Source: Nitrospirota bacterium (GTDB lineage Bacteria > Nitrospirota > Nitrospiria > JACQBZ01). Taken from it: DNA of 64,000 bases. Below, in pieces: positions 5,244 to 60,143 of the stretch (position 1 is its first letter; every line of letters begins with the position of its first letter). The notes under the pieces were generated by a model. That model was not told the origin of the DNA and did not search any database. It saw only the letters and a list, made by a program, of their open reading frames with translations. Location: positions 1,994-65,993 of the forward strand of contig JACQBZ010000020.1 of NCBI GenBank assembly GCA_016194285.1. Reading direction: 5' to 3'. A program made the position numbers and the translations under genes.

Positions 5244-6146
5244 ATGTTCAGGAGTCCATTACCAAGATTCGTGTTCATAACGGTAGGGTTATTGGCCTGC
5301 AACAAGTCGGCCACACCCGCCATTTCGACCCCGGATTCGACCCTGGCTCAGGTCAACGGAACACCGATTACGGTCGTCCAGTTTAATCAGAGATGGTCGC
5401 AGCTTCCCGAACCGGCCCGCGCGGCCTACGCCGGTCCAAACGGGAAAAAAGATTTCCTGAGTGAATTGATCACCCGCGAGCTGCTCCTTCAGAAGGCCCA
5501 TCAGATGAAACTGGACCAGGACAAAACCGTCGGAGAGCGCGTGGAATCCTTTAAAGAGCGGCTGTTGCTGGATACCACGCTTCATGAGCTGATCGAGAAA
5601 AAGGTCGAGGTATCGGAGGAGGAACTGACGGCCCAGTTCAACGCCCATCGAGACGCCCTTCCCCTGATCGAAGAGGCCCGGGCGAGTCACATTCTGGTCA
5701 AGACCGAATCCGAGGCCCGGGCCTTGCTGGGCCGGCTGCGCCGGGGCGCCGATTTCGCCGCCCTGGCCAAAGCCCACTCGATGGATCCCGCCACCAAGGA
5801 CAAGGGAGGCGATCTGGGCCTCTTGCGTAAAGGCCGGGTGCTTCCGGAGTTCGAGAAGGTCGTTTTCGAAATGAAGCCCGGTCAGATCAGCGACGTGGTC
5901 CGAACATCATACGGCTATCACATCATCCGCGTTCAAAGCCGGCGCACCCCAAAACCGCTCTCGGTCGACGACGTGCGGGACGAGCTCCGTGAACAAATCA
6001 TCAAAGACAAAGAAACGGCCCTGTTCGATGCGCTCGTTAAAACATTACGGGCCGAATCCAACATCGTGATTTCGGAGTCCCGGCTGGCCTCCATCGGAGA
6101 AGATGTCACAAAGAACCATGACCCCGCGTCCACGGCTCAACACTAA
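5244..6146 (+). CDS. PpiC/parvulin-type peptidyl-prolyl isomerase (lipoprotein-like)
   Basis: ARASHILVK, DFAALAKAHSMD, GGDLG, YGYHII; GGGAGG RBS before ATG 5244; TGC-TATAAT at 5208-5216. Confidence 0.85.
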   Translation: MFRSPLPRFVFITVGLLACNKSATPAISTPDSTLAQVNGTPITVVQFNQRWSQLPEPARAAYAGPNGKKDFLSELITRELLLQKAHQMKLDQDKTVGERVESFKERLLLDTTLHELIEKKVEVSEEELTAQFNAHRDALPLIEEARASHILVKTESEARALLGRLRRGADFAALAKAHSMDPATKDKGGDLGLLRKGRVLPEFEKVVFEMKPGQISDVVRTSYGYHIIRVQSRRTPKPLSVDDVRDELREQIIKDKETALFDALVKTLRAESNIVISESRLASIGEDVTKNHDPASTAQH

Positions 6147-7104
6147 GCCGTTCTGTTTGTACGCCGTGGTTGTACTGTGCATCGGCTGTGGGAAGACCAG
6201 CGTTCTTCCTTCCTCGCCGATCGTCGCGATGATCGATGAGGACAGCATCAGTCGTGACGAGTTCAGAGCCGCTTTTATGGAGGCCAAGATCGAGGGCGCG
6301 ATCGACGAAAACAGCGAATCCGTCAAGGAACTCAAGCGGAACCTGCTCAACGAGCTGATCGAGCAACGCCTGTTTCTGGCCGAGGCCGGAAGGCTGAAGC
6401 TGGAGGTCGGCGCAGACGAACTGCAGCAAGCCGTCGACCGGATCAAAGGAGATTACGCGGCCGGAGAGTTTGAGGCCATGCTTCAGAAGCAGCAAACCAC
6501 CTTTGAACAATGGAAGGAGCGCCTTCGAAAGGAACTCTTGAGTCAGAAGGTCATCAATCAGGCCGTGCCTCAAAACATCCAGATCCCCGACGCGGAAGTT
6601 CAAAACTACTACAAACAGCACCCTAAGGATTTCGTGCGCCCGTACGAGGTCCGGGCGCGCCAGATCGTCGTGGCCAACGAGGAAACGGCCCAATCGATCC
6701 GCCTCCAACTGACGCAGGGGGCCGACTTCGCGTCGCTGGCGAAAACCCACTCCCTCAGCCCGGATAAAGAGCAGGGCGGTGACCTCGGTTATTTCACGAA
6801 GGGCGATATGCCGGAGGAATTTGATATCGTCTTCTCTCTGGGGGTCGGGAAGATCAGCCCGATCGTCAAAACCGCCTACGGGTATCATATCTTCAAGGTA
6901 GAGGAGCAGCATCCGGCCAAACCGATGACGCCGGCCGAGGTCGCGGAGAGAATTCGAGCCCAACTGACCCAAGAGCGGCGTGAACAGTCGTTCGCGGCCT
7001 GGGTCGCCCGTCTCAAAGAGAAGGCTCGGATTACGGTGAACTACCAGATCCTCTATCAACCGCTGGGGTTATCGGATTCACCCCCGGAGCCCGTCCATGA
7101 CTAA
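6103..7104 (+). CDS. SurA-N plus parvulin peptidyl-prolyl isomerase
   Basis: VRARQIVV, DFASLAKTHSLSPD, GGDLGYF, TAYGYHIFKV. Confidence 0.85.
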   Translation: MSQRTMTPRPRLNTKPFCLYAVVVLCIGCGKTSVLPSSPIVAMIDEDSISRDEFRAAFMEAKIEGAIDENSESVKELKRNLLNELIEQRLFLAEAGRLKLEVGADELQQAVDRIKGDYAAGEFEAMLQKQQTTFEQWKERLRKELLSQKVINQAVPQNIQIPDAEVQNYYKQHPKDFVRPYEVRARQIVVANEETAQSIRLQLTQGADFASLAKTHSLSPDKEQGGDLGYFTKGDMPEEFDIVFSLGVGKISPIVKTAYGYHIFKVEEQHPAKPMTPAEVAERIRAQLTQERREQSFAAWVARLKEKARITVNYQILYQPLGLSDSPPEPVHD

Positions 7105-8065
7105 GCGACTCTGGCGCATCGTCATTTCGGTCTTCCTTTTCATAGGCGGGGTCCAACCGTCGTTCAGCGACGCGGTGACCGTCGACCGGATCGCGGCCAT
7201 CGTTAACGGCGAGATCATCACCACATCCGACCTACAATCCGCCGCTGCCCGGGCCCGTCTCGGCTTACTGACTCTGGCGCCGGATGGAACGGCTTCCCAC
7301 AGGCCGTTTTCCGAACAGGAGGTCCTGGGACAATTGATCGATCAAAAACTTCAGCTGCAACTGGCCCGGAAGAAGGGCATCACGGTCGAACCGGATGAAA
7401 TCGAAAAAGCGGTGGAAGACGTGAAACAAAAAAACGGCCTGACCACCGATGCGGCCCTCCAAAAAGCGCTGCAGGAGGAACATTCCAGCCTCGACCAGTA
7501 CAAAAACGGACTGAAGGACCAAATCCTGATTCTCAAACTCGTGAATCGCGAAGTAAGGTCGGGTGTGATCCTCAGCGATCAGGATATCCGCGCGTACTAC
7601 GCGGAGCATCCGGAACGGTTTCGGGCTCCCTTGCAGTATCACCTCCATCAAATTTTCATCCCCCTATCAAAACCCGACGCATTGCCGATGTTCGATCAGA
7701 GCGTCGGGAATGCCGTCAATCAACTCAAAGGCGGCGCCGAATTCCAGGCCTTGGTCAAACAATACTCGCAGGGTTCGGATCGGAATAACGACGGCGACCT
7801 GGGGAACCTCAAGGCGGACCAGATGCTGCCGGAAGTGCGCCAGGCGGTCGAACATTTAAAACCCGGCGAGGTCAGTGAGCCGATCAAAACAGCCCTCGGG
7901 GCACATATCTTCCGATTGGATGAGATCATTCCGCCCAAACCCCGCCCGATCGAAGAGGTCAAGCCGGAAATTCAGGAGCTTTTATTTCAGGAGCGTTCGG
8001 CCGAATTATATGAGAAGTGGCTGAAAGATTTGCGGGCCGGCGCACAGGTCGATGTCAAGTATTAG
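7097..8065 (+). CDS. surA: SurA-like periplasmic chaperone/PPIase
   Basis: Signal peptide, DRIAAIVNGEIIT SurA N-term, HLHQIFI, GDLG, GAHIFRL. Confidence 0.8.
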   Translation: MTKRLWRIVISVFLFIGGVQPSFSDAVTVDRIAAIVNGEIITTSDLQSAAARARLGLLTLAPDGTASHRPFSEQEVLGQLIDQKLQLQLARKKGITVEPDEIEKAVEDVKQKNGLTTDAALQKALQEEHSSLDQYKNGLKDQILILKLVNREVRSGVILSDQDIRAYYAEHPERFRAPLQYHLHQIFIPLSKPDALPMFDQSVGNAVNQLKGGAEFQALVKQYSQGSDRNNDGDLGNLKADQMLPEVRQAVEHLKPGEVSEPIKTALGAHIFRLDEIIPPKPRPIEEVKPEIQELLFQERSAELYEKWLKDLRAGAQVDVKY

Positions 8066-8105
8066 GGAGAAACCGCAATAACCGTATGGCAAGGAGGGTG
8101 ACAGG

Positions 8106-8447
8106 ATGATTCGAATTGTGTGGACCGTATTGTTGATGACCGTGACCGGTTTGTCCCCGGTGTTCGCGGATGAGTTATTCGATGCGGACGCAGCGAAGCA
8201 ACATTTCAACACCGGTCTGGAGCTGTACTTCAAACAGGATTATAAAGCTGCGATCAAGGAGTTCGAGGCGGCTTCCGAAATCGATCCCGAAAACGCCAAT
8301 GCCTATTACTTCATGGGCTATTCATATTATAAACTGAAAGACATGAAGAAGGCCCGGGAGGTGTTTGACCAGGCGTATGAAGCGGATACGAAATACAGCC
8401 CCATACGAAAGTCTCCGACGGACCAAAAACCGCCGGCCCAAGAATAA
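8106..8447 (+). CDS. Secreted tetratricopeptide-repeat protein
   Basis: Signal peptide plus TPR pattern (AKQHFNTGLELY...NAYYFMGYSYY...AREVFDQA). Confidence 0.8.
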   Translation: MIRIVWTVLLMTVTGLSPVFADELFDADAAKQHFNTGLELYFKQDYKAAIKEFEAASEIDPENANAYYFMGYSYYKLKDMKKAREVFDQAYEADTKYSPIRKSPTDQKPPAQE

Positions 8448-8449
8448 AA

Positions 8450-10081
8450 TTACGATTTCTCACGGATAAGTTCCAAGAACAGTTCGACCAGATGAGGATC
8501 AAACTGAGTCCCGGCATTTTTCTTAAGTTCCCTTAAGGCATACTCCTTGCCGGGGGCTTTTCGATACACCCGGTCGAAGGTCATCGCATCATAAGCGTCC
8601 ACAAGGGCTACCACCCGCGCGCCCAAGGGTGTTTCTTCGCCCCGTAGCCCGTTTGGATATCCCTTTCCATCCCATCGTTCATGATCTCCCCGGACCAACG
8701 GGACAACCGGTTCCAGAAACTTGATGGGTTGGATGATCCGCGCCCCGAGGACCGGATGCTGTTTCATCACCTCATATTCTTCCGGAGTCAACTTGCCCGG
8801 CTTCTTTAAAATCGACTCCGGGATCCCGATCTTGCCGATGTCGTGGAGGATCGCCGCGTACTGAAGGACTTCCAGGTCGTTCTCCGAAAAGTCCAATCGT
8901 TTCCCGAGCATCAAGGCATGTTCCACCGTCCGATCGGAATGGCCCATGGTCTCCACGTCCTTGGTTTCCAGGGCCGAGGCCAGCGCCTTGATGGAGTCCA
9001 GGTTGGCCGTCTTTAATTGGTTTCCTTTGAATACAACCTCTTCAAACAGCCGGGCATTTTCAATGGCGCTGGCCATCTGACGAGCCACGGAATCGCACAA
9101 CCGGATTTTCTCGGGTGTGAAAGGATTCCGCTCCCAATGTCGAGCCTCGCCCAGAACCAACAGGCCCAGAAGGACACCTTTTTTTATCATGGGGCAGATT
9201 AAAAGAGACTGCAATTCCGCCAGATTTCCCGTAAAGAGCAGCCTCTCTACCGGCGAGCCGGCGGATTGGATCTCGACGCCGCGAAGCAGAAGGGGTTCTG
9301 AAGAAGTCAGGATTTCTTGGAAACATCTTGAATCGCCGGTCGCGCAGAAACGACCGATTTCAAAATCCCAATCGAGTTGTCTTTGAGGAAAAGCGGCCAT
9401 GACCATCAGGTGATGCTGTTGACGGTTGACCAAAAGAATCCGGCAGAAGGTGGCCTCCAGGCGTTGCGTGGCGATCTGTGCGGAGGTTTGAAGCAGCTCC
9501 TGAAGTTTTAGGGAGGAGGAAGTCGTCGTGGTGATCTCCAATAACAGGGACAGTTGATTGGTCCGCTGCTGGAGCTTTTCCAGATTCCGCTGTCGTTCCT
9601 CGCTGAGCTCCTTCAATTGCCGGATTCGCTCTTCCAAGTTTGCAACCAAGTTGACGCTGTGTTCTTTCAGGTAAACCTTTTCCTCTTCGGGACCCACACT
9701 TTCTTTTTGCCCTCCTAAAAAGGCTTCGACTTGAGACGCAAATGTTCGGATGTCGAGTGGCTTGGCAATGTAACCGTCGCAACCGGCCGTCAGGGTCCTC
9801 TCCCGGTCGCCCTTCATGACATTGGCGGTCAAGGCCACGATGGGAATTTTTTCCGTTCCCTTGGTGTTCTTGATTTTCGTGGCCGCGGCGTATCCGTCCA
9901 TATCCGGCAGGTTGATGTCCATCAGAATCAGGTCCGGGTGTTCGCTGCCGGCCACCTCGATTCCGGTCAGACCGTTCTCGGCCTCCAACACCTGATATCC
10001 CTTGGCCTCAAGGACCCTTCGGACCAAAAGGGTATTTTCCGGGTTGTCTTCCACGTAAAGGATCTTTCTTTTTGATTCCAT
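8450..10081 (-). CDS. Response regulator REC-GAF-HD-GYP (c-di-GMP phosphodiesterase)
   Basis: REC (ILYVEDN, LILMDINLP), coiled coil, GAF (LGLLVLG...QMASAIENARL), HDIGK, HERWDGKGYP, VDAYDAM. Confidence 0.9.
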   Translation of the reverse strand: MESKRKILYVEDNPENTLLVRRVLEAKGYQVLEAENGLTGIEVAGSEHPDLILMDINLPDMDGYAAATKIKNTKGTEKIPIVALTANVMKGDRERTLTAGCDGYIAKPLDIRTFASQVEAFLGGQKESVGPEEEKVYLKEHSVNLVANLEERIRQLKELSEERQRNLEKLQQRTNQLSLLLEITTTTSSSLKLQELLQTSAQIATQRLEATFCRILLVNRQQHHLMVMAAFPQRQLDWDFEIGRFCATGDSRCFQEILTSSEPLLLRGVEIQSAGSPVERLLFTGNLAELQSLLICPMIKKGVLLGLLVLGEARHWERNPFTPEKIRLCDSVARQMASAIENARLFEEVVFKGNQLKTANLDSIKALASALETKDVETMGHSDRTVEHALMLGKRLDFSENDLEVLQYAAILHDIGKIGIPESILKKPGKLTPEEYEVMKQHPVLGARIIQPIKFLEPVVPLVRGDHERWDGKGYPNGLRGEETPLGARVVALVDAYDAMTFDRVYRKAPGKEYALRELKKNAGTQFDPHLVELFLELIREKS

Positions 10082-10129
10082 CGAGTTCCTCCTTTCAGCT
10101 CTGCACGGCCCGTCTTGGGCCGTCGAGTT

Positions 10130-12649
10130 TTACGGCTGGACTCCCAATCGTTTGAGTACGTCCGTCACGTTCTTTATAAAATCCATCTCGGACGGGGCGG
10201 TTTTCCGAATCGAAGTGATCACTTTGCCGTTTAATCGCTCTCGATCTTCCAATGTCAAGTCCTTCCCGGTAATGATAACGACAGGAATATCACGGGTCGC
10301 CGGATCCGTGCGAAGCGCATCCAGAACATCGAACCCGTCCATTCCGGGCATCATCAGATCCAGAAAAACCATGTCCGGTCTTTCATTCCGAATCAAGGCT
10401 AGCCCGTCGGCCCCGTCCATGGCGGCGTGGATTCGATACGGTTGCCGATCCATGATTCTCCGCATGAGTTCAACCGATTTGGGATCGTCGTCGATCACGG
10501 CGACATGGCGAATCACACCCAACCGCTTTAGCACATCGAGCACGGCCTCTTGGCTGACCGGTTTAACCAGATAATCCACGGCCCCCAACGCATATCCCTT
10601 TCCGGTTTCGTCCAGGATGGAGCAGATGACAACCGGAATCTTCCTCGTCTGTTCATTTTCCTTAAGCGCGTTCAAAATCTCCCATCCGCTTTTCGGTTTC
10701 ATCAAAATATCCAGAACAATCACGTGGGGGTTTAAACGGCCTATTTTCTCCACGACGTCATTCGTGGGGTCCACGCCCACAACCCGATAGGGCTGGGATT
10801 CCAGGTAGCGCCGAATCAACGAGACGACATGGGGATCATCATCGATAACGGCCAAGATCGGTCCCTCTCGCTTTTCGAGTTCGCTCTCCGAGGGATCGTG
10901 GCGCAATGGCGGGGTCACCGGGGTCTCCACCGCTTGGGAGGTCTTTGCGCTCGTTAACTCAAATGGAAGATTAAACGAGAACGTGGAGCCGACGCCGTAC
11001 TGACTCTCGACCCAGATCCGGCCGCCGTGGAGTTCGATGAACCGCTTGACGATCACAAGACCCAGACCGGTCCCCCCATAATTGCGCGTGGTGGAAGCGT
11101 CCAGCTGCCGGAACTCTTTGAAAAGCTTCGGCAGGTCTTCCGGACGAATCCCGAGCCCGGTGTCGGTCACACTGACACAAATCGCTTCCGGTTTCTTGAC
11201 GGCTTTGATCCGGATCGAACCTTTTGCGGTAAACTTAATCGCATTGCTAATCAGATTCAGCATCACTTGCCGCAGGCGCATCCGGTCGGCTCGAATCGCG
11301 GAAAGGCCTTCTTCGATTTCGGTTCGGAACTCGATGGCCTTGCCCTTGATCAGTCCCTTGGCCGAAGACAGCACGCTCTGGACAATCTCCTCCAGTCGGA
11401 CTTCCTCCAGGCTCAGCGTCATATGACCGGCTTCGATCTTGGCCACATCCAGAATGTCATTGATCATCTCCAAAAGGTGCTTCCCGCTCTGGTAGACGGC
11501 CGTCAGGTCCTTTTGTTGCACTTCCGTGATCGGACCGTCGATCCCCTCCAGCAGGACTTGGGCGAAACCGATGATGGCATTCAGCGGCGTGCGCAGCTCA
11601 TGACTCATATTGGCCAGGAACTGGGTCTTTAGACGATCCGATTCCTGGGCCTTCTCCATCAGGGCCTGGAGTTCGACGTTCTTCGTCGCCAATTCCTCCG
11701 TCCGCTCCCGAACCTTCATTTCCAATTGATCCTTATAAACCTCCAGTTCCTTTGTGGTCTGGCGAAGGTCCTCATGCGTCAATTCAAGGTCCTGAAACTG
11801 CCGCTGAAGCTGGGCATCGCGTTCACGCAGGGAATCCGTCATCCGGTTAAAGATCCGGGCCAATTGGCCCAGTTCATCTTGAGACACCACATCAACCGAT
11901 TTGGTGAGATCGCCTTGAGAGACCAGGATCGCCGTATTGATCATCCCCTGAACCGGCCTTAGAATCGCGCGGACGAAGCCACTCGAGCCGATTATTCCTA
12001 AGGCGATCACCCCGGAGGTCAAGAGGATATAAAATCGAACGAGGTCCCTGACCTTGGTTCGAATCGGAGTATCGGAAATTCCCATTTCCACATATCCGAT
12101 CAGCACGGGCCGATCCTCGCCGGGTTGGAGGTTGAACATGGTCATCAAGGTTTCGTCGATTCCCGCATTAACAGTCTTGCGCAGGATAATCGGAGCCAGC
12201 ATGATATAGGGATATTCGTCACGACGTCCGGGATCCGACACTTGCTTAACCAAAATCTCCGTTCTGGCTTCATTAAACTCATGGGGTTGAATCGGACTCC
12301 GTTTGGAGTGATACGCTTCACCCTCTCGGTATTGCTCGGCCAGAACCGTATGCTTTTCATTATAGATCCGGATGTATTGTAGAGCGGTCGGCTTCGGCTC
12401 AGAGTCGAGCGTCCCTTGAAGGATGTTTTTCAGGTTTGCGGAATCCTCCGCGATCACTCCAAACCTGCTGGTGGAAGCCAACGCCAGCGTCAGGCTCTTC
12501 CCTTTCATCAGGAGTTCGTTCTCCACCTCCCGGCGCATGTTGTAGAGGGCATACCAACCAAGGGACAGTCCCACGATGACGATCATCAGACTGATCATCA
12601 AGGTGAACTTCATCTTCAAACTGATCGTCTTGCGTCCAAGACCCGTCAT
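10130..12649 (-). CDS. Membrane hybrid sensor histidine kinase (2 TM, HAMP, HisKA, HATPase, 2 REC)
   Basis: NMSHELRTPLNAII, NLISNAIKFT, DTGLGI, GGTGLGL, two receiver domains with conserved Asp. Confidence 0.93.
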   Translation of the reverse strand: MTGLGRKTISLKMKFTLMISLMIVIVGLSLGWYALYNMRREVENELLMKGKSLTLALASTSRFGVIAEDSANLKNILQGTLDSEPKPTALQYIRIYNEKHTVLAEQYREGEAYHSKRSPIQPHEFNEARTEILVKQVSDPGRRDEYPYIMLAPIILRKTVNAGIDETLMTMFNLQPGEDRPVLIGYVEMGISDTPIRTKVRDLVRFYILLTSGVIALGIIGSSGFVRAILRPVQGMINTAILVSQGDLTKSVDVVSQDELGQLARIFNRMTDSLRERDAQLQRQFQDLELTHEDLRQTTKELEVYKDQLEMKVRERTEELATKNVELQALMEKAQESDRLKTQFLANMSHELRTPLNAIIGFAQVLLEGIDGPITEVQQKDLTAVYQSGKHLLEMINDILDVAKIEAGHMTLSLEEVRLEEIVQSVLSSAKGLIKGKAIEFRTEIEEGLSAIRADRMRLRQVMLNLISNAIKFTAKGSIRIKAVKKPEAICVSVTDTGLGIRPEDLPKLFKEFRQLDASTTRNYGGTGLGLVIVKRFIELHGGRIWVESQYGVGSTFSFNLPFELTSAKTSQAVETPVTPPLRHDPSESELEKREGPILAVIDDDPHVVSLIRRYLESQPYRVVGVDPTNDVVEKIGRLNPHVIVLDILMKPKSGWEILNALKENEQTRKIPVVICSILDETGKGYALGAVDYLVKPVSQEAVLDVLKRLGVIRHVAVIDDDPKSVELMRRIMDRQPYRIHAAMDGADGLALIRNERPDMVFLDLMMPGMDGFDVLDALRTDPATRDIPVVIITGKDLTLEDRERLNGKVITSIRKTAPSEMDFIKNVTDVLKRLGVQP

Positions 12650-13581
12650 CGAAAAACCTCATCGGCCGTCTTGAGGACTTCCTCCGGAATGTCCAATCCG
12701 AGGATTTTAGCCGTCTTCAGATTGATCGTCAGACGCGCCGTCTCAGGGTAGATCACTTTCCCCTGATCCGGGATCCCGCTTCGAATGACCTGGTCTACCA
12801 GAACCGAGGATTGTTTGCCGATCGAAACATAATCGGGGGAAAGCGCCAGAAGCGCACCGGCCTTCACAAAGCTGTCCGAAAACGCCATAAAGGGGATGCC
12901 CTTTTCCAAGGTCGTCAGCAGGATGAACTGAAATGAATCGTTGGTGATCACGGTGCTGTCCGGCACCATCCACAAGCCTTGAATCTGGGGCAAGAGCGAT
13001 CGGATCGCGCCCGGAATCTCCTGGGCCGTTCGGACCTCGGCCTCGACCAACTCCAAGTTCAAGTGACGCGCTTCCTCTCGGGCTGAACGGATCAACCCGG
13101 ATGTTTTGGTCGGATCGTAAAGAACCCCAATCCTTTTTAACGCGGGCACGACCGATTTAAAGGCCTTGAACTGGGACTGGATCGGAATTTCCAGGTCGAT
13201 CCCGGTGACATTTCCGGATTGAAGACCATATCTATTGGGGTCAATCACAAGACAGTAGACCAGCGGGATATCCGGAAAACTTTCCCTGGCCAATCCGGCG
13301 GCCTTGGATCCGACCGCCAGCACGGCGGCCAGCTTGCGCCGCTTCGCCTGCCCGACGATCTTCATCCCTTCATTGACGTCCCCCTGCATGTTGTACTCCA
13401 CCACGTCCACTTTGGTATGACGCCGGAACCCTTCGACGGCTTGGTCATAGGGAAGCAGGTCCTGGCTCTTGATCACGGCGACCTCGGCCGACGATGCGAC
13501 GACCGGTTGCAGGACGAAGGGCACTGCCCAAAAAACGAGCCATAAAAAGGCCCGGCTAAAAATAGCAGATAACCTTGACAT
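12646..13581 (-). CDS. Periplasmic ABC substrate-binding-like protein (ABC_sub_bind type)
   Basis: N-terminal signal, KRIGVLYDP, LWMVPDSTV, VKAGALLALSPDY..IGKQ, INLKTAKILGLDIP; ATG 13581 preferred over track start inside the TonB gene. Confidence 0.8.
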   Translation of the reverse strand: MSRLSAIFSRAFLWLVFWAVPFVLQPVVASSAEVAVIKSQDLLPYDQAVEGFRRHTKVDVVEYNMQGDVNEGMKIVGQAKRRKLAAVLAVGSKAAGLARESFPDIPLVYCLVIDPNRYGLQSGNVTGIDLEIPIQSQFKAFKSVVPALKRIGVLYDPTKTSGLIRSAREEARHLNLELVEAEVRTAQEIPGAIRSLLPQIQGLWMVPDSTVITNDSFQFILLTTLEKGIPFMAFSDSFVKAGALLALSPDYVSIGKQSSVLVDQVIRSGIPDQGKVIYPETARLTINLKTAKILGLDIPEEVLKTADEVFR

Positions 13582-15553
13582 TGAAATTCCTTCGGTCTTG
13601 AGGGACTTGGAGGATCGGTGCAAGCTCATTGGAGGCCGGATCCGAGAATCGTGCATCAAAGAGGTTGAAGATGGAAGACCGGATCTCGAGATTTTTGTAC
13701 AGATTATGGAAGGTGAGGGTGAGATTCGTAACAAAGTAGGGATCGACCCTCCCATTCGATTGGATCATCTTTCGACTCCCGACGTATTGTTCTTCAATCC
13801 CCACGGATCCTCCCTCAATCGAGAGAGGAAACAGTTGTCCGGCTTTCGCCAGATGTCTCGGGGAATTGCTGAGCTCTTCATGGGTATCGCGATCCTTGGT
13901 GACCTGATACGCGTAGCTGAAATAACTTTCAATTCCCTGCGCCCACTTCGATCGAACCTCGGTCGAGACCCCTTGACCCCGCACTCGATCCAGGTTCTGA
14001 AATTCGAATGTTCCTCCTCCCCCATTCGTCAGATTGATCAGGTCCTTGATATCGTAACGATACACGGACAGGATGCCTTTCAGATGCGCCCCCAATGCCT
14101 GCTCAATCGCCCCTTCGTACGTGTTGATCGTTTCAGACTTCAGGTTTGGGTTGCAGACAAAAGAGATCCCGCAATAGAGCAATTCATAACTGTTCGGTAC
14201 ACGAAAAGCCTGGCCGTAAAGGAGTTTGAGGATGCTGCCCTCCACGGGCTCGTAAACCAGTGACGCTCGGGGGGATGTGTGCTTATTATCTTGGGCATTG
14301 TAGCGCACATAAACGTCATGTCGCGCGCCGACGTTCAGGGTGAGGTTGTTCATCAACTGGATTTCGTCCTGAAGGTAAAGCGAGTAGACCTGGAAACGAT
14401 CGCGGGTATCAAGATAAGAAAAGAACGGATCCACATTGAAGTTTTTTAACAGAACGTGATGGAATTGTCCCTCGGTCCCGGCCACCAGCCGACTCCATGA
14501 AAAGATTTTCCAGTCCATTTGAAGTTCAGTGCCATACCATCGGCCGGGGGTGTTGTCCTTGTTGATCGTCGGCGGAGGAACGTCGATGGGATAGGAGGCC
14601 TTGTAGAGATACCAGTCATCGTAGGCTCGGATCAACAGCCCCAGCGTCGGCGTCAGTTGGGGATTATATTTGACCTCGAGGAAGTATCTCCCATCGACGG
14701 TTCTTTCCCGACCGTCATCAAAGATCGTGGCGTAAGAAGCCGTGGGGACATTCTTGCCTCGCTCGAAGTAAGTTCCTTGAAACCCAAAGTCCTTGTACCG
14801 AAGTTTTCCAAAAAGGGAATAGGCCCACTCCCCATCCGAATTTTTCGCAAAGCCGGAATCGTGGGCGGGATCTCCATCATTGTATTCGGGGAAGTAAAGG
14901 GTTTGACCGCTGCTCCGGGTGGTGGAGGCATTCAACAACAGGTTAAGTCCATTCTCATACTGCTGGCCGTAGGTCAGGATCCCTTTGTTGGTGTTGTAAC
15001 TCCCCGCCTCGGCCGAAGCCATCAGGCCTTTCAAATCGCTTCCCTCTTTGGTGACGATATTGACGACGGCAAAGAAAGCGCTGGTCCCATAGAGGGCCGA
15101 ACCGGGGCCGCGAACAATCTCAATGCGATCCACAACGTCCAGATCAATACCGGATTCCCGCCCCAGGAGAAAGGCTTCGTAAATGTCATCATTGAGAACG
15201 TGTCCGTTGAGCATGCCAAGAATCCGGATGTTAAAATCCCCCGGTCTTGAAAACCCACGAACACCCAGATAACTGTAGTTTCTGTCATTGGAGACATAAA
15301 AATCGCGCACGGATCGGAACATATCCGCAAGGGTTCGCCAGCCGTACTGTTGGATCTCTCGGGCCGTAATGATCGTGACGGAAGCCGGTGCCTCGCCGAC
15401 CACCTGTTTATACCGCGCCGCCGAGACCACCACCTCACCTTCCTGCTCCGCATTAAAGAGGGCGATTTCTTGTTCCAGGGGCCCCGCACCGGCCAGGGCC
15501 ATTCCTCTGAATACAACGCAAATAAAGCCCAGGGTCATCCAATAACGCCTCAT
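13556..15553 (-). CDS. TonB-dependent outer-membrane receptor
   Basis: Plug motifs APASVTIITAREI, RGFS, RIEIVRGPGSALYG; beta-barrel; C-terminal Phe. Confidence 0.92.
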   Translation of the reverse strand: MRRYWMTLGFICVVFRGMALAGAGPLEQEIALFNAEQEGEVVVSAARYKQVVGEAPASVTIITAREIQQYGWRTLADMFRSVRDFYVSNDRNYSYLGVRGFSRPGDFNIRILGMLNGHVLNDDIYEAFLLGRESGIDLDVVDRIEIVRGPGSALYGTSAFFAVVNIVTKEGSDLKGLMASAEAGSYNTNKGILTYGQQYENGLNLLLNASTTRSSGQTLYFPEYNDGDPAHDSGFAKNSDGEWAYSLFGKLRYKDFGFQGTYFERGKNVPTASYATIFDDGRERTVDGRYFLEVKYNPQLTPTLGLLIRAYDDWYLYKASYPIDVPPPTINKDNTPGRWYGTELQMDWKIFSWSRLVAGTEGQFHHVLLKNFNVDPFFSYLDTRDRFQVYSLYLQDEIQLMNNLTLNVGARHDVYVRYNAQDNKHTSPRASLVYEPVEGSILKLLYGQAFRVPNSYELLYCGISFVCNPNLKSETINTYEGAIEQALGAHLKGILSVYRYDIKDLINLTNGGGGTFEFQNLDRVRGQGVSTEVRSKWAQGIESYFSYAYQVTKDRDTHEELSNSPRHLAKAGQLFPLSIEGGSVGIEEQYVGSRKMIQSNGRVDPYFVTNLTLTFHNLYKNLEIRSSIFNLFDARFSDPASNELAPILQVPQDRRNFNVKVICYF

Positions 15554-17007
15554 GCCGAATCACCCTCTTTATTCAATACCTGCACGAAGGACCGTACCAA
15601 TTGCGGGTCGAACTGCTTGCCGGCGCATTGATTCAATTCCTCGATGGCTTCGTCATCGGTCAGTCGTCTCCGATACGGCCGTGTCGAAATCATCGCATGA
15701 TAGGCCTCGGCAATGGCCAGAACGCGTGCAAGAAAGGGGATGTCCTCCCCATGCAGACCTTTCGGATAACCGTTTCCATCCCAACGCTCGTGATGGTAAA
15801 GAATGGCGGGCAGCACGCCGTCTAACCGGGGCGCGTCCTTGAGCAACATCTCGGCCAGGGTCGGATGGGCCTGGATGATCTTGCGCTCTTCCATCGTCAA
15901 GGGTCCCGGCTTGTTCAAAACATTATCGGGTGCATTCATCAGACCGATATTGTGCAGCAAACTTGCAATCCGAAGGCTCTCCACCTCCGGCGGGTCGAGT
16001 TTCAAGAACTTGGCAAAATTCATGGCCAAACGAACCACCTGATCCGTATGGCCGAAGGTGAAGGGCGTCTTTGCATCGATGGCCAATCCGATATTCCGGA
16101 TCACGCTGAGTTTCGAATCTCGAAGAACGGCCTCAAGACTGCCCTGATTCTTTACAAGATGGGCCTTCAACAATTCCCCGTGAAGACTGACTCGATTTCG
16201 GCCGTTCTGCTTGGCAAAATAAAGGGCCTTATCCGCCATTTCAATCAGGCCGTCTTTGTCTCGGGCATCGATGGGAAGATTCGCAATCCCGACGCTGATC
16301 GAAATAAAAGCCCGATGACCGCCGGGCAGGTTGAAGAGATGGTAGAGAACACTGTTGCGAAGACGCTCCGCAACGACCTGGGCCCCTTCCAACGATGTTT
16401 CAGGAAGAATGATCGAAAATTCTTCGCCTCCATAACGAGCGGGAAGATCGATGGTCCGAAGTCCTTTTTTGAGAAGCTCGCTCACCTCCCGTAGAATCGC
16501 ATCGCCGACCGGATGGCCATAGGCATCGTTCAAGGTTTTAAAATGATCCAGGTCGATCATGAGAAGCGAAAGCGACCGGTTGTACCGTCGAGAACGGGTA
16601 ACCTCATCCTCCAATTGTTTTTGAAAGGCCCGATGGTTGTAAATCCCTGTGACGACATCCGTCACCGCGGCCGCTTGCGCCGTTTCTAAAGCCTGGGCCC
16701 GTTGGGCCAGGAGTCTCTTGGCATTGAGACCGAAGGTGGCGCTGATGAGCAACAAGATCGCAGCCGCCGTCGTGATCGTAAATATTTCCTGGCCAACTTC
16801 CGAGACCAGATAACCCGGCGTTCCATGGAAAACCAGATCGACCAAATTGGATATGGAACCGAAGGCACCGGCCAGAATGAAGAACAGCGCGCCGAGACGC
16901 TCCAGATCAAGCCGCGCTTCACGTTTAAGAAAGTAACCGAAATAAACAAGGGCGCCGCCCGATACTGCGAGCACCCCGTGTTCGATCCAGCGGAGTCCCT
17001 CAAACAT
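15550..17007 (-). CDS. Membrane diguanylate cyclase (GGEEF) fused to degenerate HD-GYP domain
   Basis: 3 TM segments, DVVTGIYN, IDLDHFKTLND, RTID-x5-GGEEF; HD-GYP with HNIG and AEAYHAM; ATG 17007 directly after the upstream gene. Confidence 0.88.
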   Translation of the reverse strand: MFEGLRWIEHGVLAVSGGALVYFGYFLKREARLDLERLGALFFILAGAFGSISNLVDLVFHGTPGYLVSEVGQEIFTITTAAAILLLISATFGLNAKRLLAQRAQALETAQAAAVTDVVTGIYNHRAFQKQLEDEVTRSRRYNRSLSLLMIDLDHFKTLNDAYGHPVGDAILREVSELLKKGLRTIDLPARYGGEEFSIILPETSLEGAQVVAERLRNSVLYHLFNLPGGHRAFISISVGIANLPIDARDKDGLIEMADKALYFAKQNGRNRVSLHGELLKAHLVKNQGSLEAVLRDSKLSVIRNIGLAIDAKTPFTFGHTDQVVRLAMNFAKFLKLDPPEVESLRIASLLHNIGLMNAPDNVLNKPGPLTMEERKIIQAHPTLAEMLLKDAPRLDGVLPAILYHHERWDGNGYPKGLHGEDIPFLARVLAIAEAYHAMISTRPYRRRLTDDEAIEELNQCAGKQFDPQLVRSFVQVLNKEGDSA

Positions 17008-17009
17008 TG

Positions 17010-17312
17010 TCAGCCTGTTTTTTCCGATTCGGCTTCGGGCCGGATATCGCGATAGAGTTTCCATACGATCCATGGAAACAAGATTCCAGCGCCGATCCCG
17101 AGCAGTGCGCGAACCGCCTGGATCCAGGCCGGTTCCATAAATTTGAGGACGGTTCGAACGGCCAACATCACGCAAAGACCGATCAACAACAACCAGTTCC
17201 GCTTATCGCCGACGATGTCTTGTCCAACGGGAAGAATCACAAGAGCGACCATCAACACGACGATCGTCAACGCCGTCACGTTTATCACACCGATGACGCT
17301 TTCCAGCCCCAT
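17010..17312 (-). CDS. Small membrane protein (about 3 TM), unknown function
   Basis: Three hydrophobic stretches; fits between operon neighbours with 2-9 bp gaps. Confidence 0.7.
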   Translation of the reverse strand: MGLESVIGVINVTALTIVVLMVALVILPVGQDIVGDKRNWLLLIGLCVMLAVRTVLKFMEPAWIQAVRALLGIGAGILFPWIVWKLYRDIRPEAESEKTG

Positions 17313-17321
17313 CGATCCTCC

Positions 17322-18065
17322 TCAAACCGCAGTGCCTATTGCGGTTCTCGCTCGCTCGACTAACTTTGTCCCATCTTCTTCCGACGGTTCGATCGTTGCG
17401 TGCCCCACGTGGATTCGAATCGAATACCGAACGTCACCGATCATCCATTCCCGTTCGGGAAACAGAATGGGGATACGTTGTGCGACAAGCTTCGCGCCGT
17501 CCTCCGTCGTCTGGCACAGCAGCCATAAAAATTCTTGGGGGTCGATTTGAGAAATGGTATCGTATGCACGCCGGTACGCGTTCAAGGTATTTAAGATCTT
17601 CTGAGTAATTTCGCGCACCGCATCCCCTTTGTCCAAAGGTGAAATCTCGACCTTGACGGCAAGGCACGATAATGCATATTGGAATCGACGCGACCGGATC
17701 CGTTCCTCCTCCACTCGTTTCCGGAAATCCTCTAAACCTTTCAGGATCGCGGTTGATGGATCACGATGGGGTACGGGCGGCAGGCCGATCAAATTCAATA
17801 AAGCATGGGCTGAAATTTCCTCTCCTTCCGCCATCGCCGCTTTAATTTTTTCCGCGGCCTTGCTCACCAGATAGCCTTGCTCCGTCAGCTTCTGAACGGC
17901 CTGCAACAATTCAAGATCCCGATCCGTGTAGCGATAGAATATCCTTGAGCCGTGCAGTTCCTGTCCAGGCCGCACAATCCCGATCAGTTTCCAATAACCC
18001 AGTTGTCTGGCCGAAATCTTGGCCCGTCTACAGATTTCTTTGGGGCTGTATGTCTTTTTACCCAT
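17322..18065 (-). CDS. MerR-family HTH fused to degenerate GGDEF-like domain
   Basis: N-term TYSPKEICRRAKISARQLGYW...YRYTDRDL; C-term RAYD-TISQI-DPQEF-LWLL...GAKLVAQRI...LVERA. Confidence 0.75.
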   Translation of the reverse strand: MGKKTYSPKEICRRAKISARQLGYWKLIGIVRPGQELHGSRIFYRYTDRDLELLQAVQKLTEQGYLVSKAAEKIKAAMAEGEEISAHALLNLIGLPPVPHRDPSTAILKGLEDFRKRVEEERIRSRRFQYALSCLAVKVEISPLDKGDAVREITQKILNTLNAYRRAYDTISQIDPQEFLWLLCQTTEDGAKLVAQRIPILFPEREWMIGDVRYSIRIHVGHATIEPSEEDGTKLVERARTAIGTAV

Positions 18066-18283
18066 CTCTCCACGCCCGATCCGAAAAGGTTGTCAACTTT
18101 TAACATATATAGAGCAATAAGCGTACCAACTGATAGTAAAATAAGGACTATTTCTTATACATGCTTGTTCAATGTAATAAATCAACAGGTTACAATAATG
18201 CGCTTTTGGGGGTTTGGAAGCGGATCCTTTGAATTAGGAAATCTCTTTCCTATTCTTTGACGAAATTTGGCAGGATGGAAGGA

Positions 18284-18892
18284 TTAGTCTTTCAGGAGTT
18301 GGACGATCTTTTCCAGAAGGGCATCTCGACCCTCACCGGTCTTGGAAGAAAATGGCAGGATGATGGGGGGAGTAGCCGACCCCGGCAATGAACCTTTGAT
18401 CTTGCCGAGCGCCGATGCCAGCCGTCCTCGGGGCAGCTGATCCGACTTTGTGGCGACCAGAATACACGGAAGCGTGTAGGAGCGAATCCATGTTAACAAT
18501 TGTTGATCCAAAAGACTCGGCGGGTGACGAATATCCATCAGCACGATCAAGCCACGAAGCGCGGGACGGTGCGTGAGATAATCATTCACCAAGTCACCCC
18601 AGGCCTCCCGTTGTGCGAATGATGCGCTGGCATAGCCGTATCCGGGCAGGTCCACAAGATAAAAAGCCAACGGCCATTTGAGGCCGACGGTGACCTTGAA
18701 AAAGTTAATCAGTCGTGTTTTGCCCGGCGTGCCGCTTGTTTTGGCCAGCCCTTTTTGTTGCACCAGACAATTCAACAGCGATGACTTCCCCACGTTGGAA
18801 CGTCCCGCAAGAGCAATCTCGAGCAGTCCGTCCTTTGGACAGTCTTCCGACCTGGCACAGCTCTTGATAAATTCGGCGCTGAGAATCTTCAT
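18284..18892 (-). CDS. engB: Ribosome biogenesis GTPase YihA/YsxC
   Basis: GRSNVGKSS, GKTRLINFF, VDLPGYGY, TKSD. Confidence 0.95.
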   Translation of the reverse strand: MKILSAEFIKSCARSEDCPKDGLLEIALAGRSNVGKSSLLNCLVQQKGLAKTSGTPGKTRLINFFKVTVGLKWPLAFYLVDLPGYGYASASFAQREAWGDLVNDYLTHRPALRGLIVLMDIRHPPSLLDQQLLTWIRSYTLPCILVATKSDQLPRGRLASALGKIKGSLPGSATPPIILPFSSKTGEGRDALLEKIVQLLKD

Positions 18893-51833: not shown

Positions 51834-52211
51834 TTACAATTGTAAATCCTCCATGACCTTGAGATGTCTCAGAAGCTGACCGTAACGTTGTTCCGACATC
51901 GGCTCCAACTGGAGCCCGACCATGTAAAGCTGGCCCGCCGACTTCGCCCACCGAACACGAGCCGCGACCTTCAATTCCTGCCCGGCCCGTTCCTCCTCGA
52001 TCAGTTTGAGGGTCATGACCACGAGTTGTTTCGCCTTGACCGGCCGGTGCAGATAGACGCCGAATCCCCCACGGCCGATGCTGGCGAGGTAGGCTTCCTG
52101 AGGTTTTTCCCCCTGAACCGTCAACGTCACCACCCCCATTGTGGTCAGGCGAAGATGTCTACGCCGTTCGGATCCGGTCGTCTCTTTTGGCGTCGGGTCA
52201 GCCATGGTCAT
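51834..52211 (-). CDS. PilZ-domain protein
   Basis: ERRRHLR (RxxxR), SIGRGG (D/NxSxxG-like), ARVRW, VGLQL. Confidence 0.75.
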
Positions 52212-58947: not shown

Positions 58948-59072
58948 TCGATCGTGGAACAGCTCAGCCCGTCACCCCTCTTCGATTCGACCCGCAAACC
59001 CTTGACAGCCGGCCTAAATTTGCTATTCTTAGAAAAGCGACGTCTCTTGAATAAGTGAATGGGTGGGATCGC

Positions 59073-60143
59073 ATGCCGATAGAAACCGAAAAGATCCTGA
59101 TCGTGGATGATGAGCCCAACATCCGAACGATCCTGTCTCGCCATCTCTCCAAAATCAGCTACCCCTGCACCATCGCTGAAAATTCGCAGCGCGCCATGGA
59201 GGTGTTGGAAACGGACCCTCATGCCCTGGTGATCACGGATATCCGAATGCCCGGACGGGACGGGGTTTGGCTTCTGGAAGCCTTGAAGGCCAAATGGCCT
59301 GATACCGCTGTCCTGATGATCACCGCGCTGGACGATTCCCAGATCGCGATCAATTGCCTCAAGCTGGGCGCGTACGACTACCTCATCAAGCCCCTTCATC
59401 TCGAGGAGGTGACGCTGGCGACCCAGAGCGCACTGGAAAAGAGGCGGCTGGTCATTGACAACAAACAATACCAGGAGGAACTTGAGGCCAAGGTCGTTGA
59501 GCGAACCGCCAAGCTTCAGGACGCGCTGGCGGACCTGGAGCTCAATTACGATCATACCCTGGAGGCGTTGGTGGCGGCGCTGGACGCGCGCGAGCACGAA
59601 ACCGGCAATCACTCGAAACGCGTCGCACAATACGCCCTTTTATTATCGGATTCCTTCGACATGTCCAAACTGGACCGCATGGACATCTATCGGGGGGCCT
59701 TCCTGCACGACATCGGGAAGATCGGCGTCTCCGATAACATTCTTCTCAAACCCGGCAAACTCACGGCCAATGAATGGACCGAAATGCAACGTCACCCTTC
59801 GATCGGATACAACATTCTCAAACAGATCGGTTTCTTAGACGGCGCCCTCAAAACGGTCGTCAGTCATCATGAACGGTTCGACGGGAAGGGGTATCCAAAG
59901 GGGCTTCGCGGCCAAGAGATTCCCCTGGGCGCGCGCATCTTTTCGGTTGCAGATGCCTTCGACACCATGACCACCGATCGGCCCTACCGCAAGGCGTTGA
60001 CGTATCCGGCCTCCCGGGACGAGATCCTCCGCTGCTCCGGCTCGCAATTTGATCCCAAAGTGGTCGAAGCCTTTCTGAAGATTACGGAGCGCGACTGGCT
60101 GGAGTGCCAGCGGTCGGGGCGGGATCCGCACTCAAAGAAATAG
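59073..60143 (+). CDS. Response regulator REC-HD-GYP
   Basis: ILIVDDE, ITDIRMPG, HSKRV, HDIGK, HHERFDGKGYP, DRPYRK. Confidence 0.92.
   Translation: MPIETEKILIVDDEPNIRTILSRHLSKISYPCTIAENSQRAMEVLETDPHALVITDIRMPGRDGVWLLEALKAKWPDTAVLMITALDDSQIAINCLKLGAYDYLIKPLHLEEVTLATQSALEKRRLVIDNKQYQEELEAKVVERTAKLQDALADLELNYDHTLEALVAALDAREHETGNHSKRVAQYALLLSDSFDMSKLDRMDIYRGAFLHDIGKIGVSDNILLKPGKLTANEWTEMQRHPSIGYNILKQIGFLDGALKTVVSHHERFDGKGYPKGLRGQEIPLGARIFSVADAFDTMTTDRPYRKALTYPASRDEILRCSGSQFDPKVVEAFLKITERDWLECQRSGRDPHSKK

Follow-up and report, generated by a model that had tools for sequence, protein, structure and literature searches.

A string of seven minus-strand genes (g1 to g7, spanning 18065..8450) was analysed in a 64,000-nucleotide stretch, referred to below as the window, of contig JACQBZ010000020.1 from a Nitrospirota bacterium (assembly GCA_016194285.1; 2.3 Mb, 102 contigs, 88.6% complete). 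A first-pass annotation had described the string as one trans-envelope circuit for signalling by cyclic di-GMP (c-di-GMP). The seven genes, their coordinates and the domains assigned to them were confirmed throughout by open reading frame (ORF) and Pfam analysis. In comparison with relatives, the seven genes fell into three modules that can be separated, and so do not make up a single indivisible circuit.

Gene content and packing of the string

Gene g1 (17322..18065; all seven genes lie on the minus strand) encodes a protein of 247 amino acids (aa) in which a MerR-type winged helix-turn-helix (HTH), a linker and a stalk helix are followed by a catalytically dead GGDEF domain with an RxxD inhibitory site (I-site). 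Behind it lie g2 (17010..17312), for a protein of 100 aa with three hydrophobic segments by hydropathy and no Pfam family, and g3 (15550..17007), whose product has a membrane N-terminus, a GGDEF domain (E 7e-46) and an HD_5 domain (E 2e-45). The next two genes, g4 (13556..15553) and g5 (12646..13581), encode a TonB-dependent receptor of 665 aa (Plug and TonB-dependent beta-barrel by Pfam) and a periplasmic protein of the ABC_sub_bind family (PF04392) without a cognate ATP-binding cassette (ABC) transporter, respectively. The string ends with g6 (10130..12649), for a hybrid histidine kinase of 839 aa in which a periplasmic domain between two transmembrane segments is followed by HAMP, HisKA, HATPase and two REC domains, and g7 (8450..10081), for a REC-GAF-HD-GYP response regulator of 543 aa and of c-di-GMP phosphodiesterase type by Pfam. 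Two domains had been labelled degenerate, correctly: DPQEF stands for GGDEF in g1, and in the HD-GYP part of g3 HN stands for HD and ExxH/Q for DxxD.

With the start of g3 taken as Met57 of its listed ORF (17007) and that of g5 as Met59 (13581, followed by a signal peptide), g1 and g2 were separated by 9 nt (TGA-9 nt-ATG, the gap holding GGAGGA as read from the sequence) and g2 and g3 by 2 nt (TGA-2 nt-ATG), the g3/g4, g4/g5 and g5/g6 pairs overlapped by 4 nt (ATGA), 26 nt and 4 nt (ATGA), respectively, and a 48-nt gap containing AAAGGAGGAA preceded g7. The earlier count of spacings, all below 50 bp and including two 4-bp overlaps, was accurate, and the 26-nt and 4-nt overlaps were seen again in the related loci G002 and G003. 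Overlaps and gaps this short leave no space for promoters ahead of g2, g3, g4, g5 or g6, the sole exception being the g6-g7 spacer (10082-10129). This spacer holds a 6-bp GC hairpin (CGGCCC-aagac-GGGCCG) without a T-run, next to which comes a strong ribosome-binding site for g7; the hairpin could be a processing or stabilising element.

Three modules at one site and their upstream region

In all relatives the site was flanked by engB (g0) on one side and, on the other, by a convergent TPR gene with SurA-like genes behind it. For the comparison, the string was divided into module A (g1), module B (g2-g3) and module C (g4-g7), and ten loci could be classified by content. Gene g1 stood alone in five (G007, L103, L107, L108 and L109), was followed by g2 and g3 only in one (G001), ran directly into g4-g7 in one (G006, where the start of g4 overlaps the end of g1 by 11 nt), and had both B and C behind it in three (the window, G002 and G003). 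Gene order was the same in G002, and in G003 up to the end of its contig, which falls inside g6 and leaves g7 beyond it. Genes g2 and g3 came and went jointly, g2 being present at 59-70% identity wherever g3 occurs and absent wherever g3 is absent. The idea of one seven-gene unit therefore failed the comparison of gene order, only three of the ten classifiable loci having both B and C.

Whole-genome searches of G001 (98% complete), G004, G005 and G007 returned no g5 homologue; module C is truly absent from these four genomes and has not been relocated within them. In trees of g1, G001 was the sister of the window within a genus clade (support 100/99) that also held G002, and its lack of g4-g7 is thus a secondary loss; G006 grouped with two g1-only loci (91/92). 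In the downstream flank (window 6103-8065, and all relatives), two to three tandem SurA-like peptidyl-prolyl isomerase genes were followed by mfd.

Module C was also found as an autonomous cassette. In the more distant Nitrospirota L104 and L105 it occurred without g1-g3 at a different site (Dus-EamA ... NTP_transf_3), with g5 homologues 56% identical in L104 and 54% in L105 (Ca. Troglogloeales). A second cassette of five genes lies in the same genome as the window on contig C47 (L106 2995-9287, minus strand), in the order TonB-dependent receptor (650 aa), PF04392 protein, sCache/HAMP kinase (489 aa), REC-PAS-GAF-HD-GYP protein (623 aa) and REC-GAF protein (284 aa), and the HD-GYP domains of this cassette and of g7 share 71% identity. 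When species-representative genomes were searched with a binding-protein alignment of eight sequences, 80 loci were obtained, Ca. Nitrospira defluvii among them and nearly all from Nitrospirota. In almost all 80, the binding-protein gene was directly followed by a kinase gene whose N-terminal sensor region matches that of g6, and this adjacency was also present in Acidobacteriota, Brocadia and Nitrospinota; the outputs of the Nitrospira cassettes differed, consisting of REC-PAS proteins and a second kinase. Upstream sequence of 6.5 kb or more was available at 55 loci, and a receptor hidden Markov model built from five sequences was applied to these: 32 had a full-length co-directional receptor gene, 5 had fragments only and 18 had none. 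The trio of receptor, binding protein and kinase was also seen on an Acidobacteriota contig, where the receptor belongs to a different subtype. A literature search for PF04392 or COG2984 proteins together with kinases found nothing specific. On one metagenome contig (L021 1-17000; ENA ERZ25039531 contig_10900), about 20 consecutive co-directional PF04392 genes or gene fragments were seen, with no kinase or transporter in view.

The spacer between engB and g1 measures 218 nt and holds a sigma-54-type element (TGGTACGcttaTTGCT; 18113..18128, minus strand) with the -24 GG at 18127-18126 and the -12 GC at 18115-18114, the start codon of g1 following about 50 nt later. The pattern TGGYAY-N5-TTGC had this single match in the 64-kb window (0.31 expected per window), rpoN is present in the genome, and the element was kept in eight of nine aligned loci, including g1-only loci and that of the most distant g1 homologue (43% identity). 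Operators of the MerR family are dyads inside the over-long (19-20 nt) spacer of a sigma-70 promoter. Upstream of g1, the hexamer TTGATT is followed by 20 nt holding the palindrome TACAT-N9-ATGTA (18158..18176, minus strand) and then by TATAAG; the palindrome was conserved in seven of the nine aligned loci, and the -10-like hexamer was not conserved in relatives, the promoter type that is conserved at this place being sigma-54. The palindrome may be an operator, possibly for the g1 product. A second palindrome, TAGGAAA-gaga-TTTCCTA (18235..18252, minus strand), lies about 115 nt upstream of the -24 element, with TAGGAA/TTCCTA half-sites that are conserved in most relatives around a varying centre, and may be the binding site of an enhancer-binding protein, that is, of an activator. 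No further copy of either palindrome was found anywhere in the 2.3-Mb genome, so that no g1 regulon can be proposed from them. Conservation of both palindromes extends to genomes with g1 alone. A consensus scan of positions 8000-18400 gave 10 promoter-like and 13 terminator-like matches against 6.7 and 13.8 in shuffled sequence, counts not above the shuffles, and is therefore silent on internal signals. Taken with the packing, the upstream sequence makes co-transcription of g1-g7 from the g1 promoter plausible.

Predicted roles of the proteins

The HTH of g1 matched MerR_1 (E 1.8e-10, residues 6-75), and its C-terminal part gave a partial GGDEF match at 23.3 bits (cut-off 23.8), the G006 orthologue reaching 30.1 bits. 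The I-site region reads RAYD-TISQI-DPQEF, which places RxxD five residues before the GG(D/E)EF position. Only 29 g1 homologues were found in 5.8 billion proteins. In 15 homologues, down to about 40% identity, R166-x-x-D169, E178 and an RSRRF cluster were invariant, while the GGDEF position drifted (DPQEF, GRQEF, DRLEF, NGSEF and others); retention of RxxD, of its five-residue spacing and of a second arginine cluster under drift of the catalytic motif is the signature of a retained I-site. A profile of the g1 family matched GGDEF proteins in the PDB at E 1e-9, with RaYD aligned on the I-site ReYD/ReVD of true cyclases. In an AlphaFold2 model (mean predicted local distance difference test score, pLDDT, 80), residues 8-62 form a winged HTH (helices and beta-wing), residues 92-102 are disordered and make up the linker, residues 103-128 build a long stalk helix and residues 132-245 adopt a GGDEF fold, and the best Foldseek matches to this model were the GGDEF domains of WspR, DgcB and DosC (root-mean-square deviation 3-4 Å over about 145 columns), BrlR appearing at rank 36 for the MerR part. 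These features make g1 a probable c-di-GMP-binding transcription factor that would act through its I-site. Because g1 is often alone, the c-di-GMP that its neighbours make or degrade need not be what it targets.

PelD and PopA are degenerate-GGDEF receptors that bind c-di-GMP by the I-site and have no DNA-binding domain, and g1 likewise keeps RxxD five residues before a dead GG(D/E)EF position. BrlR is a MerR-family regulator that binds c-di-GMP (PMC6028453) and shares the MerR-type HTH with g1, but its C-terminal domain is GyrI-like where that of g1 is GGDEF. These three proteins are the nearest analogues of g1, none of them pairing a MerR HTH with a GGDEF I-site, and no paper on a MerR-GGDEF fusion was found in a literature search.

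The cyclase domain of g3 carries GGEEF and an RxxD I-site, and these motifs were conserved in four orthologues. The HN and ExxH/Q substitutions of its HD-GYP part were present in all four orthologues as well, which marks this part as a conserved non-catalytic HD-GYP variant. A paralogue of g3 elsewhere in the genome (contig C38:17457-18566) has GGDEF-HD-GYP architecture, is 47% identical over 370 residues and keeps the HH pair.

In the product of g4, a signal peptide and the TonB-box-like GEVVVSA are accompanied by a C-terminal Phe, and the genome contains three TonB_C genes, so that g4 can be an energised importer. Pfam detected the plug and barrel only, with no FecA-type N-terminal signalling domain, and no anti-sigma or extracytoplasmic function (ECF) sigma factor ORF is adjacent to the cluster. 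Matches of g4 to specific receptor families in Pfam and NCBIfam all fell below cut-offs, and the ligand is not nameable from them. The receptor gene was damaged in several relatives: in G006 (L016 6300-6650) part of its interior is deleted and the frame shifts ahead of the last strands, in L104 (4089-6089) it is split into three ORFs, and in L105 (2475-2846) only a relic of 124 aa is left. Since the rest of module C is retained in these loci, entry of the ligand may not need the receptor, which is the least constrained part of module C. The frameshifted, fragmented and relic copies and the missing signalling domain count against the single trans-envelope circuit.

No ABC permease or ATPase for g5 was found in the cluster, and none dedicated to it in the 88.6%-complete genome. 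The only BPD_transp_2 permeases of the genome are a LivH/LivM-like pair on contig C71, beside their own Peripla_BP_6 protein and branched-chain-type ATPases, and the only two PF04392 genes each lie inside a cassette of receptor, binding protein and kinase. Because g5 has no importer (allowing for the missing 11% of the genome), it is most likely a co-receptor of the kinase.

In g6, transmembrane segments at residues 8-37 and 202-230 enclose about 165 periplasmic residues, for which no sequence match was found in the PDB; Pfam gave only weak sCache hints (sCache_4 for g6, and sCache_3_2 for the kinase of the C47 paralogue cassette). The best NCBIfam match of g6 was BarA, below cut-off, and the TorS and LuxQ models were likewise below theirs. 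Pfam found no histidine phosphotransfer (HPt) domain in g6, the sole Hpt match in the genome lying in a 704-aa ORF on contig C32, and the orthologous cassette kinases of L104 and L105 are non-hybrid (589 and 584 aa, respectively). For these three reasons phosphate probably passes directly from His of g6 to Asp of the g7 REC domain, the two REC domains of g6 itself serving as sinks or modulators, and a classic His-Asp-His-Asp relay is unlikely.

In g7, the HD, GYP and DAYD motifs are present, and DHERWDG is found where most HD-GYP enzymes have HH. This variant was common to all cassette-linked HD-GYP proteins (the window, G002, G006, L024, L104, L105 and the C47 paralogue); among the other HD-GYP genes of the genome, five keep HH and four read LY, HE, EH or HQ. 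A gene for a REC-GAF-HD-GYP protein followed the kinase gene in G002, G006, L024, L104, L105 and the C47 paralogue. The link proposed between kinase and REC-GAF-HD-GYP protein was thereby upheld, being conserved well outside the family (L024, L104, L105 and the C47 paralogue).

Interpretation, alternatives and precedents

The reading preferred here, to which we give a probability of roughly 60%, is that the string places three signalling modules side by side in a lineage-specific manner and that they are probably co-transcribed from one sigma-54 promoter. The product of g1, which would be the old resident of the site beside engB, most likely binds c-di-GMP at the I-site of its dead GGDEF domain and alters transcription. 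In module B, g3 would make c-di-GMP as a membrane diguanylate cyclase under feedback inhibition via its own I-site, with g2 as a small membrane partner and the HD-GYP-like tail of g3 in a non-catalytic role. In module C, the TonB-dependent receptor g4 would bring a ligand into the periplasm, the transporter-less PF04392 protein g5 would bind it and dock on the periplasmic domain of g6, and g6 would phosphorylate the REC domain of g7 directly, its own REC domains acting as sinks or modulators, with g7 degrading c-di-GMP. Where A, B and C are together, a ligand from outside would lower the c-di-GMP pool that is made next door and read by g1.

Several observations weigh against parts of this reading. 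G006 lacks the sigma-54 element. The DH that g7 carries instead of the usual HH leaves it a predicted phosphodiesterase only. With the genome 88.6% complete, the missing remainder could hold the gene for an HPt protein or for an ABC partner. The receptor gene has been broken or lost in three lineages (G006, L104 and L105) that keep binding protein, kinase and HD-GYP protein intact. Gene g1 is alone in half of the classifiable loci, and the g1 trees do not settle the deep order of events, an ancestral full set followed by losses and a derived set built by gains being undecidable from them.

A further step from this reading would be to see the string as a local circuit, complete in itself, in which c-di-GMP has a reader of a new type: a sigma-54 operon in which the cyclase fills the pool, a ligand-gated HD-GYP protein drains it, with the ligand signal passing from receptor to PF04392 protein to kinase, and a MerR-type I-site factor senses the level, c-di-GMP bridging two I-sites and so dimerising g1 on the TACAT-N9-ATGTA palindrome in its own promoter. 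We regard this as tentative, and clearly less probable than juxtaposition as such. What had been proposed about a single circuit survives in the tight packing, in the gene order of G002 and G003 and in the link between kinase and HD-GYP protein; it does not survive in the separability of the modules and in the occurrence of module C elsewhere without g1-g3.

It is unlikely that the adjacency is meaningless, with the engB-TPR/SurA site merely permissive and the C-terminal domain of g1 serving dimerisation or folding without binding c-di-GMP. The patchy presence and absence of the modules would fit such a view, as would the wealth of c-di-GMP genes in this genome, which makes chance neighbours likely: GGDEF domains numbered at least 20 and HD-GYP domains at least 14 in 2.3 Mb, about one per 70 kb. 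Two genes of the window had been suggested as partners, one for a PilZ protein (51834..52211) and one for a REC-HD-GYP protein (59055..60143); both exist, but by the same count no weight can be given to their presence, and no evidence links either to the cluster. A meaningless adjacency and a g1 that does not bind c-di-GMP are nevertheless hard to reconcile with the invariance of RxxD, its spacing and the second arginine cluster of g1 to about 40% identity in spite of catalytic drift, and with gene starts that overlap the preceding stops and so leave no room for independent promoters.

Less probable again is that g4 and g5 form a nutrient-uptake pair in which g5 hands its ligand to a distant ABC importer and the kinase regulates in parallel, as in BctC/BctE. 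PF04392 proteins such as TrpX are genuine ABC components, among NCBIfam models g5 scored best with TrpX (94.9 bits, where the cut-off is 390), the structures nearest to g5 are transporter binding proteins, and the genome is incomplete. However, both PF04392 genes of the genome sit in cassettes with a receptor and a kinase, a complete Liv system, equipped with a Peripla_BP_6 protein of its own, accounts for the only permeases of matching type, and throughout the phylum, with few exceptions, the gene that comes after that of the binding protein encodes a kinase whose periplasmic domain is conserved. Equally improbable is the reading of the first-pass annotation, that the seven genes form one obligate, co-evolved circuit with interdependent parts: tight packing with overlaps, identical order in G002 and G003 and the 11-nt overlap in G006, by which module C stays coupled to g1 without g2-g3, speak for it, but B and C occur together in only three of ten loci, g1 alone is the commonest state, module C is found elsewhere without g1-g3 (L104, L105 and C47) and the same-genus genome G001 has lost the whole of module C.

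Juxtaposition of modules can be set beside known systems, each of which resembles one part of the string. In LuxP/LuxQ, TorT/TorS and ChvE/VirA (reviewed in PMC9602780), the gene of a membrane (hybrid) kinase adjoins that of a periplasmic binding protein, which serves the kinase as co-receptor. LuxPQ and TorTS would be functional analogues of the g5/g6 step, and the core of g6 matches the TorS and LuxQ models, below their cut-offs; all three systems differ from module C, where the binding protein belongs to PF04392, a TonB-dependent receptor lies upstream and g6 has no HPt domain. In RpfC/RpfG, a REC-HD-GYP enzyme lowers c-di-GMP under the control of a sensor kinase, and RpfC carries an HPt domain. 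The pair is an analogue of kinase control over an HD-GYP enzyme as predicted for g6 and g7, but g7 has an additional GAF domain and the DHERWDG variant, g6 is without HPt, and the signal would arrive via a binding protein and not via membrane helices. As in FecA/FecR/FecI, a TonB-dependent outer-membrane protein heads the signalling route; with no signalling domain in g4 and no adjacent anti-sigma or ECF sigma factor, the cluster is not of the FecA kind.

By layout, the Pah system is the closest published counterpart of module C. In Cycloclasticus sp. P1, the TonB-dependent receptor PahS, the periplasmic binding protein PahP and the kinase PahK are clustered (Wang et al., iScience 2023, PMC10570129), and that article reports contacts of PahS with PahP and of PahP with PahK, hand-over of the ligand, and control, together with PahR, of responses to polycyclic aromatic hydrocarbons (PMC10570129). 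Genes g4-g5-g6 have the PahS/PahP/PahK layout, with g5 transporter-less, the likeness being one of layout. The two differ in output, which as described there is the DNA-binding regulator PahR, mapped by ChIP-seq, and in module C a REC-GAF-HD-GYP protein, and in ligand, which is a polycyclic aromatic hydrocarbon for Pah (PMC10570129) and is not nameable from sequence for module C. Pseudomonas aeruginosa PA2070-PA2072 was considered as another such trio and rejected, PA2071 being FusA2 (PMC3634840).

The seven-gene string is thus a family-level peculiarity and not a new kind of system. Its natural variants (regulator only, regulator with cyclase, regulator with sensing cassette, and all three) amount to a 'deletion series' through which comparative work can ask what each block contributes. 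Two pieces stand out as the most interesting, namely the MerR-dead-GGDEF protein and the transporter-less PF04392 protein paired with a kinase, a pairing that is widespread. The trio of receptor, transporter-less PF04392 protein and kinase is widespread in Nitrospirota, Acidobacteriota and anammox bacteria and has one published experimental precedent by layout, and the MerR-dead-GGDEF protein would, if binding is confirmed, represent a new class of c-di-GMP-responsive transcription factor.

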